Assembly: GCF_001677475.2 (NCBI RefSeq)
Contig: NZ_CP015229.1
Reading direction: 5' to 3' (one strand)
DNA: 64,000 nucleotides
Source of the DNA: Escherichia coli
GTDB taxonomy: Bacteria > Pseudomonadota > Gammaproteobacteria > Enterobacterales > Enterobacteriaceae
Both the position numbers and the translations under genes were made by a program. The notes under the pieces were generated by a model. It had not been told where the DNA came from, did no database searches, and worked only from the letters and a program-made list of their open reading frames with translations. The stretch's first letter is position 1, and each line of letters starts with the position of its first letter. This document shows positions 27,207-31,813 of this stretch, piece by piece.

Positions 27207-27509
27207 ATGACACCCTGGTTTCTTTACTTGATCCGTACCGCCGATAATAAGCTTTATACCGGGATCACCACAGATGTCGAACGCCGCTATCAGCAGCACC
27301 AAAGCGGCAAAGGGGCGAAAGCACTGCGCGGGAAAGGAGAACTAACGCTGGCGTTTTCCGCGCCAGTGGGCGATCGTTCGCTGGCGTTACGGGCAGAATA
27401 TCGCGTTAAGCAACTGACCAAACGGCAAAAAGAACGTCTGGTAGCGGAAGGCGCAGGGTTTGCAGAACTGTTGAGCAGCCTACAAACCCCAAAGATTAAA
27501 AGCGATTGA
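27207..27509 (+). CDS. yhbQ: GIY-YIG domain protein, 100 aa
   Basis: 100 aa; [22 protein letters not shown] is a GIY-YIG signature. Confidence 0.88.
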
Positions 27510-27999
27510 AGTGCTCGTGATACTCAACCAGACCGGTTACGCCGTTCAGCGCGTCATCCGCTAAACGATGTACCTGGAAGGCGCTTTCAGTGCCCGGCCA
27601 GCGGCAACGCAGATCGTGATGCGCCGCCAGCTCAAAGCCGAAACGACTGTACAGCGCCGGATCGCCCAGCGTCACCACTGCGGCATAGCCGAACTCATTA
27701 AGCGAATCGAGTCCTTCATAGACCAGTTGGCGTGCCAGCCCCTGTCCACGGTATTTTTCATCAACCGCCAACGGTGCCATGCCGACCCATTGCAGGTCTT
27801 CGCCCTGCACATCAACCGGACTAAATGCCACATAGCCAATGACCTGACCTTCGTCATCTGTCGCCACCAGCCCCAGCGTCAGAAAGCCATCTTCACGCAG
27901 ATCGTGAACCAGCTTCGCTTCCGCATCGCTTTCGAATGAACGACGCAGCAGGGCATCAATACCCGGCGCATCAATGGGAATTTCTACTCGAATTAGCAT
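27496..27999 (-). CDS. yhbS: GNAT-family N-acetyltransferase, 167 aa
   Basis: 167 aa ORF with acetyl-CoA binding motif region ([10 protein letters not shown]). Confidence 0.88.
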
Positions 28000-28517
28000 G
28001 GTTCACCTACCGATGTCTGTTTGGTTTCAGGCGCGGTTTTCATTCCCGCCTCAACAAAATCCGCCAGTTGCAGCAGCATCATGCGTAAGGCTTTCGGCAT
28101 TTGCTCCAGTTCAATGGCGTCCATCAGGTTTTTCACATACAGCCCCAGCTCCGTATCGCCTTCAATCACCAGCCGACGCTGGAAGAAGAGCGTATCCGGA
28201 TCTTGTTTACGCGCCGCAATCATCAGCAGATCGCTGGCGTCGGCACTAAAACTCACATCAGCTTGCGCGTTCTGGCTAACGACCAGTTTGCCATTCACCA
28301 CCGAGGTAAACCATTGCAGGTCAATATCACGCACATGAATACTTAACCAGCGGCCTTCAAGAAACTCCAGCTCGCCATCATCCAGCGCCTGACGGAATTG
28401 CCAGCTTAAGACCTGCTCAAGAACCTGGCGTTTTAGCGCAAATGGCGTCAGTTTTACCGGTACACTCAACAGAGATGGCCCCAAATGCACAATACGGGAA
28501 CGCAGTTTATCCAACAC
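27993..28517 (-). CDS. ubiT: SCP2-domain ubiquinone biosynthesis accessory factor UbiT (YhbT), 174 aa
   Basis: ORF track begins at a TTG (28541); I place the start at the in-frame GTG (28517) giving MLDKLRSRIVHLGPSLL. The start is uncertain. Confidence 0.8.
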   Translation of the reverse strand: MLDKLRSRIVHLGPSLLSVPVKLTPFALKRQVLEQVLSWQFRQALDDGELEFLEGRWLSIHVRDIDLQWFTSVVNGKLVVSQNAQADVSFSADASDLLMIAARKQDPDTLFFQRRLVIEGDTELGLYVKNLMDAIELEQMPKALRMMLLQLADFVEAGMKTAPETKQTSVGEPC

Positions 28518-28725
28518 GAGTTTTACTCCCTGTTTCAACAATCATCCTATTTTGCCATATCAGAAAAATAACATAGCGGTATAAATCAACAATTCCATAT
28601 GAAATTGCTGCTACCACCAATACAACTTTAACTGCCTTAAATCAAAAATTGTCGCAGCAAGGTTAACTAAAATCCCAGTTCGTTAACATTTTTGCGTTTT
28701 GATAGCGCAACCTTCAGGAAAAATT

Positions 28726-29721
28726 ATGGAGCTGCTCTGCCCTGCCGGAAATCTCCCGGCGCTTAAGGCGGCCATCGAAAACGGCGCAGATGCTGTTTAT
28801 ATCGGGCTAAAAGATGATACCAATGCCCGTCACTTCGCCGGCCTTAACTTTACCGAGAAAAAATTGCAGGAAGCGGTGAGTTTTGTCCATCAACATCGCC
28901 GCAAACTTCACATCGCGATTAACACTTTTGCGCATCCGGACGGTTACGCCCGTTGGCAGCGCGCCGTGGATATGGCGGCGCAGCTGGGTGCCGACGCGCT
29001 GATCCTCGCCGACCTCGCCATGCTGGAGTACGCCGCCGAGCGTTACCCGCATATTGAGCGTCATGTGTCAGTGCAGGCTTCGGCGACCAATGAAGAGGCG
29101 ATTAACTTTTATCATCGCCATTTTGATGTTGCCCGCGTGGTGCTGCCGCGCGTGTTGTCGATTCATCAGGTGAAACAGCTGGCACGGGTCACACCTGTAC
29201 CACTGGAAGTCTTTGCTTTTGGCAGCCTGTGCATTATGTCGGAAGGCCGTTGCTATCTGTCGTCGTATCTGACAGGTGAGTCGCCCAACACCGTGGGTGC
29301 GTGTTCTCCGGCCCGTTTCGTGCGCTGGCAGCAAACGCCGCAGGGGCTGGAATCTCGCCTGAACGAAGTACTGATCGACCGTTATCAGGATGGCGAAAAC
29401 GCAGGTTATCCGACGCTGTGTAAAGGGCGTTATCTGGTGGACGGCGAGCGCTATCACGCGCTGGAAGAACCCACCAGTCTCAATACCCTGGAACTGCTGC
29501 CGGAGTTAATGGCAGCGAATATTGCTTCGGTGAAAATTGAAGGCCGCCAGCGTAGCCCGGCGTATGTCAGCCAGGTGGCGAAAGTCTGGCGTCAGGCTAT
29601 CGACCGTTGTAAGGCCGATCCGCAAAACTTCATACCGCAAAGCGCGTGGATGGAGACGCTCGGGTCGATGTCCGAAGGCACGCAGACCACCCTTGGCGCG
29701 TATCACCGTAAATGGCAGTGA
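28726..29721 (+). CDS. ubiU: U32-peptidase-family O2-independent ubiquinone hydroxylation protein UbiU (YhbU), 331 aa
   Basis: Start at internal ATG (MELLCPAGNLPALKAAIENGADAVYIG); U32 family. Confidence 0.9.
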   Translation: MELLCPAGNLPALKAAIENGADAVYIGLKDDTNARHFAGLNFTEKKLQEAVSFVHQHRRKLHIAINTFAHPDGYARWQRAVDMAAQLGADALILADLAMLEYAAERYPHIERHVSVQASATNEEAINFYHRHFDVARVVLPRVLSIHQVKQLARVTPVPLEVFAFGSLCIMSEGRCYLSSYLTGESPNTVGACSPARFVRWQQTPQGLESRLNEVLIDRYQDGENAGYPTLCKGRYLVDGERYHALEEPTSLNTLELLPELMAANIASVKIEGRQRSPAYVSQVAKVWRQAIDRCKADPQNFIPQSAWMETLGSMSEGTQTTLGAYHRKWQ

Positions 29722-29729
29722 GAAAAGCA

Positions 29730-30608
29730 ATGAAATATTCCTTAGGGCCAGTGCTGTGGTACTGGCCAAAAGAGACGCTGGAAGAATTTTATCAGCAGGC
29801 CGCCGCCAGCAGCGCCGACGTGATTTATCTTGGTGAAGCGGTATGCAGCAAGCGCCGGGCAACCAAAGTTGGCGACTGGCTGGAGATGGCAAAATCACTC
29901 GCCGGAAGTGGTAAGCAGATTGTGCTCTCCACGCTGGCGCTGGTGCAGGCATCCTCTGAACTGGGCGAACTGAAACGCTATGTTGAGAACGGTGAGTTTC
30001 TGATTGAAGCCAGCGATCTCGGCGTGGTGAATATGTGCGCTGAACGCAAACTGCCGTTCGTCGCCGGGCACGCGCTGAACTGCTACAACGCGGTGACACT
30101 GAAAATATTGCTCAAACAGGGCATGATGCGCTGGTGTATGCCGGTGGAGCTTTCCCGCGACTGGTTGGTGAATCTGCTTAATCAGTGCGATGAGCTGGGC
30201 ATTCGCAACCAGTTTGAAGTGGAAGTCCTGAGCTACGGTCATCTGCCGCTGGCCTACTCCGCCCGCTGCTTTACCGCGCGTTCGGAAGACCGCCCGAAAG
30301 ATGAGTGTGAAACCTGCTGCATTAAGTATCCGAACGGGCGCAACGTGCTGTCGCAGGAAAACCAACAAGTGTTTGTACTCAATGGCATTCAGACCATGAG
30401 CGGCTACGTTTACAACCTCGGTAACGAGCTGGCATCCATGCAGGGATTGGTTGATGTGGTCCGCCTGTCACCGCAGGGTACTGACACTTTCGCGATGCTC
30501 GACGCCTTCCGCGCTAATGAAAATGGCGCGGCACCACTGCCGTTGACGGTAAACAGCGATTGTAACGGCTACTGGCGGCGGCTGGCCGGGCTGGAGCTGC
30601 AAGCGTAA
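29730..30608 (+). CDS. ubiV: U32-peptidase-family protein UbiV (YhbV), 292 aa
   Basis: Start at internal ATG (MKYSLGPVLWYWPKETLEEF), 9 nt after the ubiU stop. Confidence 0.9.
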   Translation: MKYSLGPVLWYWPKETLEEFYQQAAASSADVIYLGEAVCSKRRATKVGDWLEMAKSLAGSGKQIVLSTLALVQASSELGELKRYVENGEFLIEASDLGVVNMCAERKLPFVAGHALNCYNAVTLKILLKQGMMRWCMPVELSRDWLVNLLNQCDELGIRNQFEVEVLSYGHLPLAYSARCFTARSEDRPKDECETCCIKYPNGRNVLSQENQQVFVLNGIQTMSGYVYNLGNELASMQGLVDVVRLSPQGTDTFAMLDAFRANENGAAPLPLTVNSDCNGYWRRLAGLELQA

Positions 30609-30688
30609 GTAAATAGCTCACTTTGTTAACAACTTTAACTACTCTTTAATGCAGTATTAAAGATTAATCGGTAACAAAGTGAGCTGTT

Positions 30689-31696
30689 ATGACTGATAAA
30701 ACCATTCCGTTTTCGCTACTCGATCTGGCCCCTATTCCCGAAGGTTCTTCAGCGCGAGAAGCGTTCTCCCACTCTCTCGACCTCGCCCGTCTGGCTGAAA
30801 AGCGCGGCTATCATCGCTACTGGCTGGCTGAACACCACAATATGACCGGTATTGCCAGTGCTGCAACATCAGTATTGATTGGCTATCTGGCGGCGAATAC
30901 CACTACGCTGCATCTGGGGTCCGGCGGCGTGATGTTACCAAACCACTCACCGTTGGTGATCGCCGAACAGTTCGGCACGCTCAATACGCTCTATCCGGGG
31001 CGAATCGATTTGGGGCTGGGCCGTGCTCCGGGTAGTGACCAGCGAACCATGATGGCTCTACGTCGTCATATGAGCGGCGATATTGATAATTTCCCCCGCG
31101 ATGTCGCGGAGCTGGTGGACTGGTTTGACGCCCGCGATCCCAATCCGCATGTGCGCCCGGTACCGGGCTATGGCGAGAAAATCCCCGTGTGGTTGTTAGG
31201 CTCCAGCCTTTACAGCGCGCAACTTGCGGCGCAGCTTGGTCTGCCGTTTGCGTTTGCCTCACACTTCGCGCCGGATATGTTGTTCCAGGCGCTGCATCTT
31301 TATCGCAGCAACTTCAAACCGTCGGCACGGCTGGAAAAACCGTATGCGATGGTGTGCATCAATATTATCGCCGCCGACAGCAACCGCGACGCTGAATTTC
31401 TCTTTACCTCAATGCAGCAAGCCTTTGTGAAGCTGCGCCGTGGCGAAACCGGGCAACTACCGCCGCCGATTCAAAATATGGATCAGTTCTGGTCACCGTC
31501 CGAGCAGTATGGCGTGCAGCAGGCGCTGAGTATGTCGCTGGTGGGTGATAAAGCGAAAGTGCGTCATGGCTTGCAGTCGATCCTGCGCGAAACCGACGCC
31601 GATGAGATTATGGTTAACGGGCAGATTTTCGATCACCAGGCACGCCTGCATTCGTTTGAACTGGCGATGGATGTTAAGGAAGAGTTGTTGGGATAG
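30689..31696 (+). CDS. yhbW: Luciferase-like (LLM-class) flavin monooxygenase, 335 aa
   Basis: 335 aa ORF, bacterial-luciferase-like fold. Confidence 0.88.
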
Positions 31697-31704
31697 TGTG
31701 TCTT

Positions 31705-31812
31705 AACGCGGGAAGCCTTATCCGAGATGGCAACGCTGTCCTACGTAGGCCTGATAAGCGAAGCGCATCAGGCATTGTGTAGGCAGCAGAAATGTCGGAT
31801 AAGGCACCGCTG
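31705..31812. repeat. REP/BIME element
   Basis: gcctgataagcgaagcgcatcaggc plus flanking REP-like palindromes (ggaagccttatccgagatgg ... gtcggataaggcaccgc) between convergent yhbW and mtr. Confidence 0.8.
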
Positions 31813-31813
31813 A

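Follow-up and report, generated by a model that had tools for sequence, protein, structure and literature searches.

The divergent ubiT/ubiU-ubiV locus of Escherichia coli and the half-consensus FNR sites of its intergenic region

The locus considered here raises two questions: how a pair of divergent operons can be controlled by FNR from a shared region in which no clean FNR box is visible, and at which of two candidate non-ATG codons the translation of ubiT begins. Positions 27993-30608 of the window (the whole 64-kb stretch of E. coli DNA that was analysed) contain ubiT on the minus strand, divergent from ubiU-ubiV on the plus strand, and the 208-bp intergenic region between ubiT and ubiU spans 28518-28725. 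With a probability of about 0.96, this is the E. coli ubiT/ubiU-ubiV locus of O2-independent ubiquinone synthesis, with three promoters and two FNR sites in its divergent region.

Identity of the locus and its proteins

The open reading frames lie exactly where the original prediction had placed an SCP2 gene and two divergent U32 genes, and the profile searches that it had set as a check assign all three proteins to these families. The 174-residue product of ubiT (27993-28517, minus strand, GTG start; annotated as such in RefSeq) is an SCP2-domain accessory factor, which matches the Pfam profile PF02036 over residues 43-133 (E=7.9e-20) and the NCBIfam equivalog NF047962 with 153.6 bits (cut-off 46.9); a PDB sequence search returned for it only the generic SCP2 structures 1c44, 2c0l and 1qnd. 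UbiU (331 residues; 28726-29721, plus strand) and its partner UbiV (292 residues; 29730-30608, plus strand) are U32-family [4Fe-4S] proteins, with E-values of 1.6e-67 and 1.2e-9, respectively, against Peptidase_U32 (PF01136). UbiU scored 560 bits over its full length (1-331) against NF047963 (cut-off 440), and UbiV scored 362.3 bits against NF047965 (cut-off 275) and 439.7 bits against PRK15447. No solved relative of UbiU was found in the PDB sequence search at E<=0.001. The eight cysteines listed as [4Fe-4S] ligands of the two proteins (PMC6747719) are all present, namely C169, C176, C193 and C232 in UbiU, and C39, C180, C193 and C197 of the CXnCX12CX3C motif in UbiV. Together with the identity to K-12, the Pfam and NCBIfam matches confirm the assignment to the O2-independent ubiquinone system that had been proposed from the sequence.

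In K-12, the three genes are also known as yhbT (b3157, ubiT), yhbU (b3158, ubiU) and yhbV (b3159, ubiV) (Pelosi 2019, PMC6747719; Arias-Cartin 2023, PMC10470549), and the genes, their order and orientation, and both FNR sites are the same here; the divergent arrangement corresponds to 'architecture 3' of PMC11707229. In both K-12 MG1655 and the E. coli genome that matches best, RefSeq annotates the genes at the coordinates given above, and a 2.8-kb region covering the locus was matched in 5424 of 5426 complete E. coli genomes, where it is annotated as ubiT/ubiU/ubiV. The intergenic region and UbiT are identical to those of MG1655 (208/208 nucleotides and 174/174 residues), while ubiU and ubiV differ from K-12 at 26 and 17 nucleotides, with the surrounding 8 kb being approximately 97% identical. 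These differences amount to two amino-acid substitutions each in UbiU (V190I, I303V) and UbiV (A26T, V274A), all distant from the cysteine ligands, and judged from sequence they have no evident functional significance. The ATG of yhbS, a GNAT acetyltransferase gene downstream of ubiT (27496-27999, minus strand), lies in a 7-nt overlap with the final codons and stop of ubiT; because of this overlap, yhbS is read as a passenger co-transcribed with ubiT. The ubiV start at ATG 29730 (the MKYSLGP position) is present in 75 of 75 sequences. An alternative start at ATG 29712 was rejected, because the frame is lost in species whose gap is 5 or 7 nt; its conservation is explained by the C-terminal codons of ubiU (KWQ-stop) at that place.

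A separate observation, which may be new, is a kilobase of low diversity across the E. coli species, which takes in ubiT, the intergenic region and the initial 265 nt of ubiU. Synonymous constraint was rejected as the cause of this patch, as ubiT is just 93.5% identical in E. albertii.

FNR sites and promoters of the intergenic region

The original prediction described the system as FNR-controlled and reported that no clean TTGAT-N4-ATCAA box could be found by eye in 28518-28725. Both statements hold. The intergenic region contains no perfect box, and FNR control is exerted through two non-canonical boxes that exactly match published sites, both on the minus strand: F1 (TTGATTTAAGGCAG, 28632-28645), which activates the ubiUV promoter ubiUVp, and F2 (TTGATTTATACCGC, 28576-28589), which activates the ubiT promoter ubiTp2. 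Each site deviates from the perfect box by three mismatches and consists of one perfect and one degenerate half, which is why neither was apparent to the eye. The non-consensus halves (CTGCC or GCGGt) are themselves conserved in 79-80 of 81 Enterobacteriaceae sequences.

The position-weight-matrix scan for FNR that had been suggested as a check was carried out with a matrix built from 31 Grainger sites, F1 being excluded. F1 scored 14.6 bits, ranking first among the approximately 64,000 positions of the window and lying above the training-site median (12.7 bits). F2 ranked 185th in the window with just 5.2 bits; because of this low score it is not callable from the sequence alone, and its role is taken from published mutagenesis. 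Mutation of F1 and F2 in K-12 validated both sites, and the F2 mutation abolished the anaerobic induction of ubiT (PMC10470549). F1 is likewise the motif in the ChIP-chip data of Grainger 2007 (PMC1802558), an FNR ChIP-seq peak was reported at yhbT/yhbU (PMC3688515), and Fnr ChIP-chip data list 'Activation' for both operons (PMC3974632). Expression ratios of 0.07 for yhbU, 0.115 for yhbV and 0.49 for yhbT accompany the ChIP-seq peak; since yhbUV is labelled 'Activated' there, we take them to be ratios of the fnr mutant to the wild type (PMC3688515).

Three promoters serve the two operons. Their reported transcription starts were derived second-hand from distances given in the text of PMC10470549, with a 1-nt ambiguity each, and their probable elements were read from conserved blocks in the alignment of the 81 Enterobacteriaceae sequences, so that the exact -10 and -35 hexamers are inferred. 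For ubiUVp, the putative -10 element TAAAAT (28668-28673, plus strand) lies in the conserved block GGTTAACTAAAATCC, and the reported start is at about 28681/28682. The upstream ubiT promoter, ubiTp1, would have the -10 element TATTGG (28617-28622, minus strand) in a conserved CCAATAC block, with a start at about 28608/28609; the TTGATT half of F1 (28640-28645) is likely to double as its -35 element. For ubiTp2, an extended -10 element TGgCAAAAT (28549-28557, minus strand) is suggested by the conserved block 28548-28561, and the reported start is at about 28542/28543. In class II FNR promoters the FNR site is centred near -41.5, overlapping the -35 element, and the -10 element follows approximately 29.5 bp downstream. 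F1 was found in 79 of the 81 sequences, with 29.5 bp between its centre (28638.5) and the first base of the putative ubiUVp -10 element in every case (79/79), which corresponds to the -41.5 geometry. F2 was found in 80, its centre (28582.5) always 28.5 bp from the putative -10 element of ubiTp2 (80/80), equivalent to -40.5. Counted from the reported starts, with their 1-nt ambiguity, F1 would be centred at about -42.5/-43.5 and F2 at about -39.5/-40.5. As in other class II promoters, the -35 regions of ubiUVp and ubiTp2 are poor, fitting activator dependence; unlike the class II consensus, each site has a single consensus half (ATCAA).

A generic sigma-70 scan of 27400-30800 returned a single match (28699-28727, ending at the ubiU ATG) and missed all three real promoters. 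Such a consensus scan is uninformative here, as the promoters are activator-dependent or weak. A third FNR-like half-site (TTGATAGCGCAACC, 28699-28712) was considered and rejected, since it has no matrix score, is specific to Escherichia and coincides with the loop of a hairpin in the ubiU leader.

Start of ubiT, proposed additional control and alternative readings

The 44-nt leader of ubiU contains a covarying hairpin, which may be a new observation. In the minimum-free-energy fold it forms the stem-loop UUGCGUU-UUGAU-AGCGCAA (28692-28710, plus strand), followed by the ubiU Shine-Dalgarno sequence AGGA (28716-28719, 6 nt before the ATG) within a TCAGGA block conserved in the Enterobacteriaceae alignment. 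It is conceivable, but somewhat doubtful, that this stem-loop adds post-transcriptional or attenuation control of ubiUV beyond FNR; possible modes include attenuation, control of mRNA stability, and the binding of a small RNA or a protein. Nearly all of the 81 Enterobacteriaceae sequences have at this place a hairpin whose sequence varies. Its covariation was computed on 40 and 64 distinct Enterobacteriaceae UTRs: approximately 82% of hairpin cells are paired, against 32-56% in slid-register controls, and compensatory changes occur in six of the seven pairs, with 46 double-change cells against 17.6 +/- 3.3 in shuffles, a significance that shuffle controls overstate because the sequences are related. 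G.U pairs outnumber A.C cells (29 vs 7), which favours an RNA on the ubiU strand, and in Klebsiella and Raoultella T5 comes after the hairpin, an arrangement resembling a terminator. On the other hand, the hairpin is weak in E. coli (-9.7 kcal/mol for the 59 nt that contain it, z = +0.37 vs shuffles), as is the RNAalifold consensus (-1.26 kcal/mol); Pseudocitrobacter has lost the hairpin by deletion and one Enterobacter has a truncated form, and GC-rich palindromes could also reflect the turnover of small inserted repeats. An Rfam search of 28400-28850 assigned no family, its chance match to CRISPR-DR22 reaching 21.9 bits where the gathering score is 50.

A precedent exists in Pseudomonas aeruginosa, where the small RNA SicX opens a 5' UTR stem-loop that hides the ubiU ribosome-binding site, the operon being activated by Anr, a homologue of FNR (Cao 2023, PMC10247376). 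The two arrangements differ in that the P. aeruginosa stem-loop occludes the ribosome-binding site, whereas the enterobacterial hairpin stops 5 nt short of the Shine-Dalgarno sequence and does not include it, and in gene order, as ubiUVT forms one operon there, unlike the divergent ubiT of E. coli. If the proposed leader control is true, the enterobacterial leader would parallel the SicX-responsive one with a different geometry.

Control by ArcA in addition to FNR, through a direct-repeat site overlapping F2 and the ubiTp2 core promoter, is improbable and is not supported. Of the 34 loose matches to TGTTA-N6-TGTTA in the window, three are in the 208-bp region, and two of these make up three repeats at 11-bp spacing across 28558-28584, but such matches are inflated by the AT-richness of the region, and the repeat bases are poorly conserved between genera. 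The ArcA scan that the original prediction had called for, performed with a matrix from 115 published boxes, yielded a sub-threshold match only: the best one in the region (28557-28574, minus strand; rank 15 in the window) has an Ri of 9.4 bits, lower than the weakest training box (9.6; median 15.7). No ArcA ChIP peak at the locus was found in two genome-wide studies, with yhbT, yhbU and yhbV being absent from the text form of the ArcA ChIP and expression supplements of Park 2013 and of the ArcA tables of Federowicz 2014.

The original prediction was also right that ubiT has a non-ATG start, and of its two candidates, GTG at 28517 and TTG at 28541, conservation favours GTG as the probable translation start. 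The GTG codon and its GGAG Shine-Dalgarno motif (GGGAG in E. coli, 28526-28530, minus strand) at 8-nt spacing are kept in all 81 Enterobacteriaceae sequences, the TTG at 28541 occurs in five, all Escherichia, and in 47 of the 81 a stop is reached upstream before any in-frame start. Translation of a 182-residue UbiT from TTG 28541 is therefore very unlikely, even though the frame stays open as far as 28541, TTG occurs in frame at 7 and 8 codons upstream of the GTG, and transcripts from the distal ubiTp1 would include both of them. TTG 28541 is preceded by just AGGA at a distance of 3 nt; it would be left with a leader of 1-2 nt on transcripts from the reported ubiTp2 start, and GTG is the start annotated in RefSeq and K-12.

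That UbiU and UbiV are peptidases or collagenases without a role in quinone synthesis, as suggested by the Pfam name Peptidase_U32, the RefSeq product name 'U32 family peptidase' still borne by UbiV and older papers calling yhbUV collagenase-like, is refuted by published K-12 genetics and biochemistry, in which they are Fe-S proteins needed for hydroxylating ubiquinone precursors in an O2-independent manner (PMC6747719, PMC10470549, PMC10990095), and both clear their NCBIfam equivalog cut-offs.

Function in O2-independent ubiquinone synthesis

The locus very probably operates as follows. FNR at F1 acts as a class II activator of ubiUVp, so that ubiUV is made only at low O2; FNR at F2 raises the expression of ubiT (and yhbS) anaerobically via ubiTp2, and the upstream ubiTp1 supplies basal, FNR-independent UbiT. 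UbiT is probably translated from GTG 28517 behind its GGAG motif, and as an SCP2 lipid-binding accessory factor it is thought to hold hydrophobic intermediates. UbiU and UbiV form a heterodimer, each carrying one [4Fe-4S] cluster through four cysteines, and hydroxylate the ring of ubiquinone precursors in three reactions without O2, with prephenate, identified as the oxygen donor in PMC10990095, as the donor. Experiments in K-12 have shown the roles of the proteins, their Fe-S ligands, the binding of FNR, what mutation of F1 and F2 does, and the need for prephenate; UbiT, identical in sequence to the protein here, is needed for anaerobic UQ8 synthesis in that strain (PMC6747719, PMC10470549).

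Related systems share parts of this scheme. UbiJ is another SCP2 accessory factor, required for the O2-dependent ubiquinone pathway only, whereas UbiT acts in the anaerobic pathway and in the shift from anaerobic to aerobic conditions (PMC10470549, PMC6747719). The RNA-hydroxylation proteins TrhP and RlhA have the U32 domain, the four-cysteine motif and the prephenate dependence in common with UbiU and UbiV (PMC6747719, PMC10990095). They act on RNA instead of a prenylated phenol, and UbiU and UbiV differ in working as a heterodimer; UbiU scores 165 bits against the TrhP model, far under its cut-off of 534.

The locus, its FNR sites and its function thus constitute a correct finding that is already known, and since the biology of the locus is all published, it adds nothing new. 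Three points are closed by the analysis: ubiT most probably starts at GTG, the already known half-consensus sites F1 and F2 account for the 'missing' FNR boxes, and control by ArcA is not supported. Both the hairpin of the leader and the kilobase of low diversity offer testable leads on the tuning of the pathway. This locus lets facultative anaerobes make ubiquinone without O2, in a hydroxylation that uses the first known organic oxygen donor, and it supports nitrate respiration and pyrimidine synthesis.

The ubiT/ubiUV locus and its products

The ORF map and the sequence place ubiT on the minus strand, with its stop ending at 27993 and a frame that stays open, past an in-frame GTG at 28517, as far as a TTG at 28541, and ubiU and ubiV on the plus strand, the former from an annotated ATG at 28726 to 29721 and the latter from ATGs at 29712 and 29730 to 30608. 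The RefSeq coordinates of the best-matching genome and of MG1655 (window position = NC_000913.3 position - 3,272,759) map exactly to 27993-28517, 28726-29721 and 29730-30608, leaving a ubiT-ubiU gap of 208 bp (28518-28725). A megablast with the segment 27900-30700 covered 5426 complete E. coli genomes and matched 5424 of them, with ubiT, ubiU and ubiV annotated; the other two lack the locus, and a copy was also present in one plasmid-typed record. The divergent arrangement with a 208-bp shared region, as originally predicted, is confirmed; the finding is real, was correctly read and is already known. The best match of the 2.8 kb among complete E. coli genomes was 99.4%, and just 27 genomes reached at least 99%, so the window represents a sparsely sampled lineage. 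The intergenic region (208/208) and UbiT (174/174) are identical to those of MG1655, while UbiU differs by V190I and I303V, and UbiV by A26T and V274A.

The proposed assignment to the SCP2 and U32 families also held, as UbiT matched Pfam SCP2 (E=7.9e-20) and UbiU and UbiV matched Peptidase_U32 (E=1.6e-67 and 1.2e-9, respectively). The NCBIfam equivalog models were passed by UbiT (153.6 bits, cut-off 46.9), UbiU (560 bits, cut-off 440) and UbiV (362.3 bits, cut-off 275), and the TrhP model was not (165 bits, cut-off 534). UbiT matches SCP2 structures, and a structure sequence search returned no sequence-related solved structure for UbiU. The published [4Fe-4S] ligands (PMC6747719) are retained in UbiU (C169, C176, C193, C232) and UbiV (C39, C180, C193, C197). 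The UbiU-UbiV heterodimer with its two [4Fe-4S] clusters is needed for O2-independent hydroxylation of ubiquinone precursors, with UbiT as the SCP2 accessory factor (PMC6747719) and prephenate supplying the oxygen in all three hydroxylations (PMC10990095). This mechanism can be carried over to the present locus, given that its sequences match those studied completely or almost completely. The ubiT stop overlaps yhbS by 7 nt in every species examined; yhbS reportedly has no part in UQ8 metabolism (PMC10470549).

Start codon of ubiT and control by FNR

The locus was compared among 80 GTDB species representatives of Enterobacteriaceae and the window (81 sequences). Of the two ubiT starts originally proposed, GTG 28517 and TTG 28541, the former is supported: a GTG at the homologous codon and a GGAG at an identical 8-nt spacing are present in 81/81, whereas the TTG, 8 codons upstream, is found in 5/81, exclusively in Escherichia. 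In 20 sequences a start codon lies 7 codons upstream, 47 have no in-frame start ahead of a stop, and the stretch 28533-28547, upstream of the ubiT Shine-Dalgarno sequence, is not conserved. The ubiTp2 transcript begins 33 nt from the FNR site F2 (PMC10470549), i.e. at 28542/28543, and the TTG, which would then have essentially no leader, is disfavoured. Codon 2 is excluded as a conserved start, being CTG or TTA in 22/81. By this comparison the ubiT start is placed at GTG 28517, which yields the 174-aa protein of the published work (PMC6747719).

FNR control of the locus, assumed in the original prediction, is borne out by exact matches to both published sites and by ChIP-chip and ChIP-seq. FNR activates ubiUV and ubiTp2, while ubiTp1 maintains basal UbiT, which is required for the anaerobic-to-aerobic shift (PMC10470549). 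Site F1, TTGATTTAAGGCAG (28632-28645, minus strand), precedes the ubiUVp start by 36 nt, and F2, TTGATTTATACCGC (28576-28589, minus strand), precedes ubiTp2 by 33 nt and follows ubiTp1 at a distance of 19 nt; mutation of F1 abolished UbiV production, and mutation of F2 removed anaerobic induction of UbiT with basal UbiT unaffected (PMC10470549). The earlier failure to see a clean TTGAT-N4-ATCAA box by eye in 28518-28725 was correct, because each site has one perfect ATCAA half and three mismatches in the other. A symmetrised matrix was built from Table 2 of Grainger et al. (PMC1802558), using its 31 AlignACE sites other than F1. With it F1 scored 14.6 bits, exceeding the median training site and every other position of the 64-kb window, while F2 scored 5.2 bits (rank 185) and is not callable from sequence alone. 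The second-best match in the whole window, TTGCTCCAGTTCAA (28101-28114, 12.0 bits), lies within the ubiT coding sequence, some 100 nt ahead of the yhbS ATG, and could be either a chance match or an internal candidate FNR site upstream of yhbS.

Published genome-wide data agree. The ChIP-chip motif at yhbT/yhbU (the K-12 synonyms of ubiT/ubiU) is F1 (PMC1802558), and a second ChIP-chip study lists 'Activation' of [yhbU, yhbV] and of [yhbS, yhbT] (PMC3974632). A ChIP-seq peak at yhbT/yhbU was accompanied by classification of yhbUV as 'Activated', with expression ratios of 0.07 for yhbU, 0.115 for yhbV and 0.49 for yhbT (PMC3688515), which we read as presumably fnr mutant over wild type. yhbW (30689-31696), directly downstream of ubiV on the same strand, is listed by Myers et al. 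2013 with an expression ratio of 6.8 against 0.07 for yhbU; in the fnr comparison it apparently shifts in the opposite sense to ubiUV despite being the next gene. The content of the yhbW-mtr spacer (31697-31813; 6775-8183 in fetched locus L001 and 7862-8842 in L088) depends on the strain: in the closest genome, E300010, it holds a gene for an L,D-transpeptidase and a hypothetical one, in strain MEW an IS621 transposase, and in the window and K-12 none of these.

F1 is recognisable in 79/81 sequences, with 29.5 bp to the first -10 base in every one, and F2 in 80/81, with a constant 28.5 bp to its -10 element. An FNR centre 29.5 bp from the first -10 base corresponds to class II geometry. The half of each site that departs from consensus is also maintained in 79-80 of the 81 Enterobacteriaceae, as CTGCC in F1 (28632-28636) and GCGGC or GCGGT in F2 (28576-28580; GCGGT in the window, GCGGC in most genera), which suggests selection for sub-optimal FNR affinity or a second factor. 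That Pseudomonadota conserve FNR sites in the divergent ubiT-ubiU interval has already been published (PMC11707229).

Promoter elements and the ubiU leader

ArcA control is not supported. With a matrix from the 115 ArcA boxes in Table S3 of Park et al., the best match in 28518-28725 (28557-28574, minus strand) had an Ri of 9.4 bits, slightly below the weakest training box (9.6; median 15.7), and ubiT, ubiU and ubiV appear in neither of two genome-wide ArcA studies (Park et al.; PMC3974632). Loose TGTTA-N6-TGTTA matches are enriched in the intergenic region (3 of the window's 34), but AT content is high there and conservation of the repeat bases is poor. By far the window's best ArcA-box match, ATGTTGATGTATTGTAAA (55443-55460, minus strand), has an Ri of 17.6 bits and exceeds the known-box median.

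The 81-sequence alignment resolves discrete conserved intergenic blocks: the ubiT Shine-Dalgarno sequence (minus strand); TATTTTGCCATATC (28548-28561), reading TGgCAAAAT on the minus strand, a putative extended -10 of ubiTp2; F2 with its flank; CCAATAC (28618-28624), the likely ubiTp1 -10 TATTGG (minus strand, 28617-28622); F1 with its flank; GGTTAACTAAAATCC (28661-28675), holding the probable ubiUVp -10 TAAAAT; TCGTTAACA at the ubiUVp start; and the ubiU Shine-Dalgarno sequence (plus strand). We infer these hexamers from sequence; a generic sigma-70 scan picked up none of the three promoters. A 17-bp spacer separates the perfect half of F1, TTGATT (28640-28645, minus strand), from the conserved TATTGG downstream of it, and by this spacing TTGATT would be the -35 of the FNR-independent ubiTp1; FNR bound at F1 might shut off ubiTp1 and activate ubiUVp at once. 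The hexamer GTTAAC occurs in two strongly conserved copies at a distance of 20 bp (28662-28667 and 28682-28687), which bracket the ubiUVp -10 and cover its transcription start; contacts of RNA polymerase or FNR do not explain their conservation.

Between the TCGTTAACA and TCAGGA blocks the primary sequence is highly variable across genera, and a GCGnnnn/nnnnCGC stem is formed at the homologous position by almost every sequence of the fetched comparison loci (L003-L082). In the window this hairpin lies in the ubiU 5' UTR at 28692-28710 (plus strand). Among 40 diverse leaders aligned with MAFFT, pairing was kept in 82.4% of cells, versus 32-51% in slid registers, with compensatory changes in 6 of 7 stem pairs; in a covariance-model alignment of 64 distinct leaders the figures were 81.6% and 32-56%, and double-change cells numbered 46 against 17.6 +/- 3.3 in shuffles, the sequences being related. 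The excess of G.U over A.C cells (29 versus 7) points towards an RNA fold of the ubiU strand. T5 follows the hairpin in Klebsiella and Raoultella. The E. coli hairpin is weak (z = +0.37 versus shuffles for the 59-nt stretch holding it), as is the RNAalifold consensus, and the hairpin is deleted in Pseudocitrobacter. It matched no Rfam family, and a literature search found no published description; in P. aeruginosa, ubiUVT has a functional leader stem-loop responsive to the small RNA SicX (PMC10247376).

A low-diversity kilobase in E. coli

Of 5424 E. coli genomes, 5419 share at least 99% identity with the window over a 998-bp segment that takes in ubiT, the intergenic region and ubiU up to nucleotide 265, whereas the adjacent 998 bp reach this identity in just 27 genomes with the window as query and in 1626 with K-12. 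Among nine diverse genomes, pi is 0.2-0.7% across about 27600-29000, except for one 200-bp window inside ubiT (1.4%), versus 2-4% in the flanks; the valley extends from the 3' end of yhbS into ubiU as far as nucleotide 265, and the adjacent kilobase has a normal diversity of 2-3%. Synonymous-site constraint is disfavoured as its cause, since ubiT is not unusually conserved between species (93.5% identity to E. albertii), which makes a sweep or recombination likelier. In this locus-level comparison the valley would point to a recombination-driven sweep rather than synonymous constraint. Only this patch and the leader hairpin might be new here.
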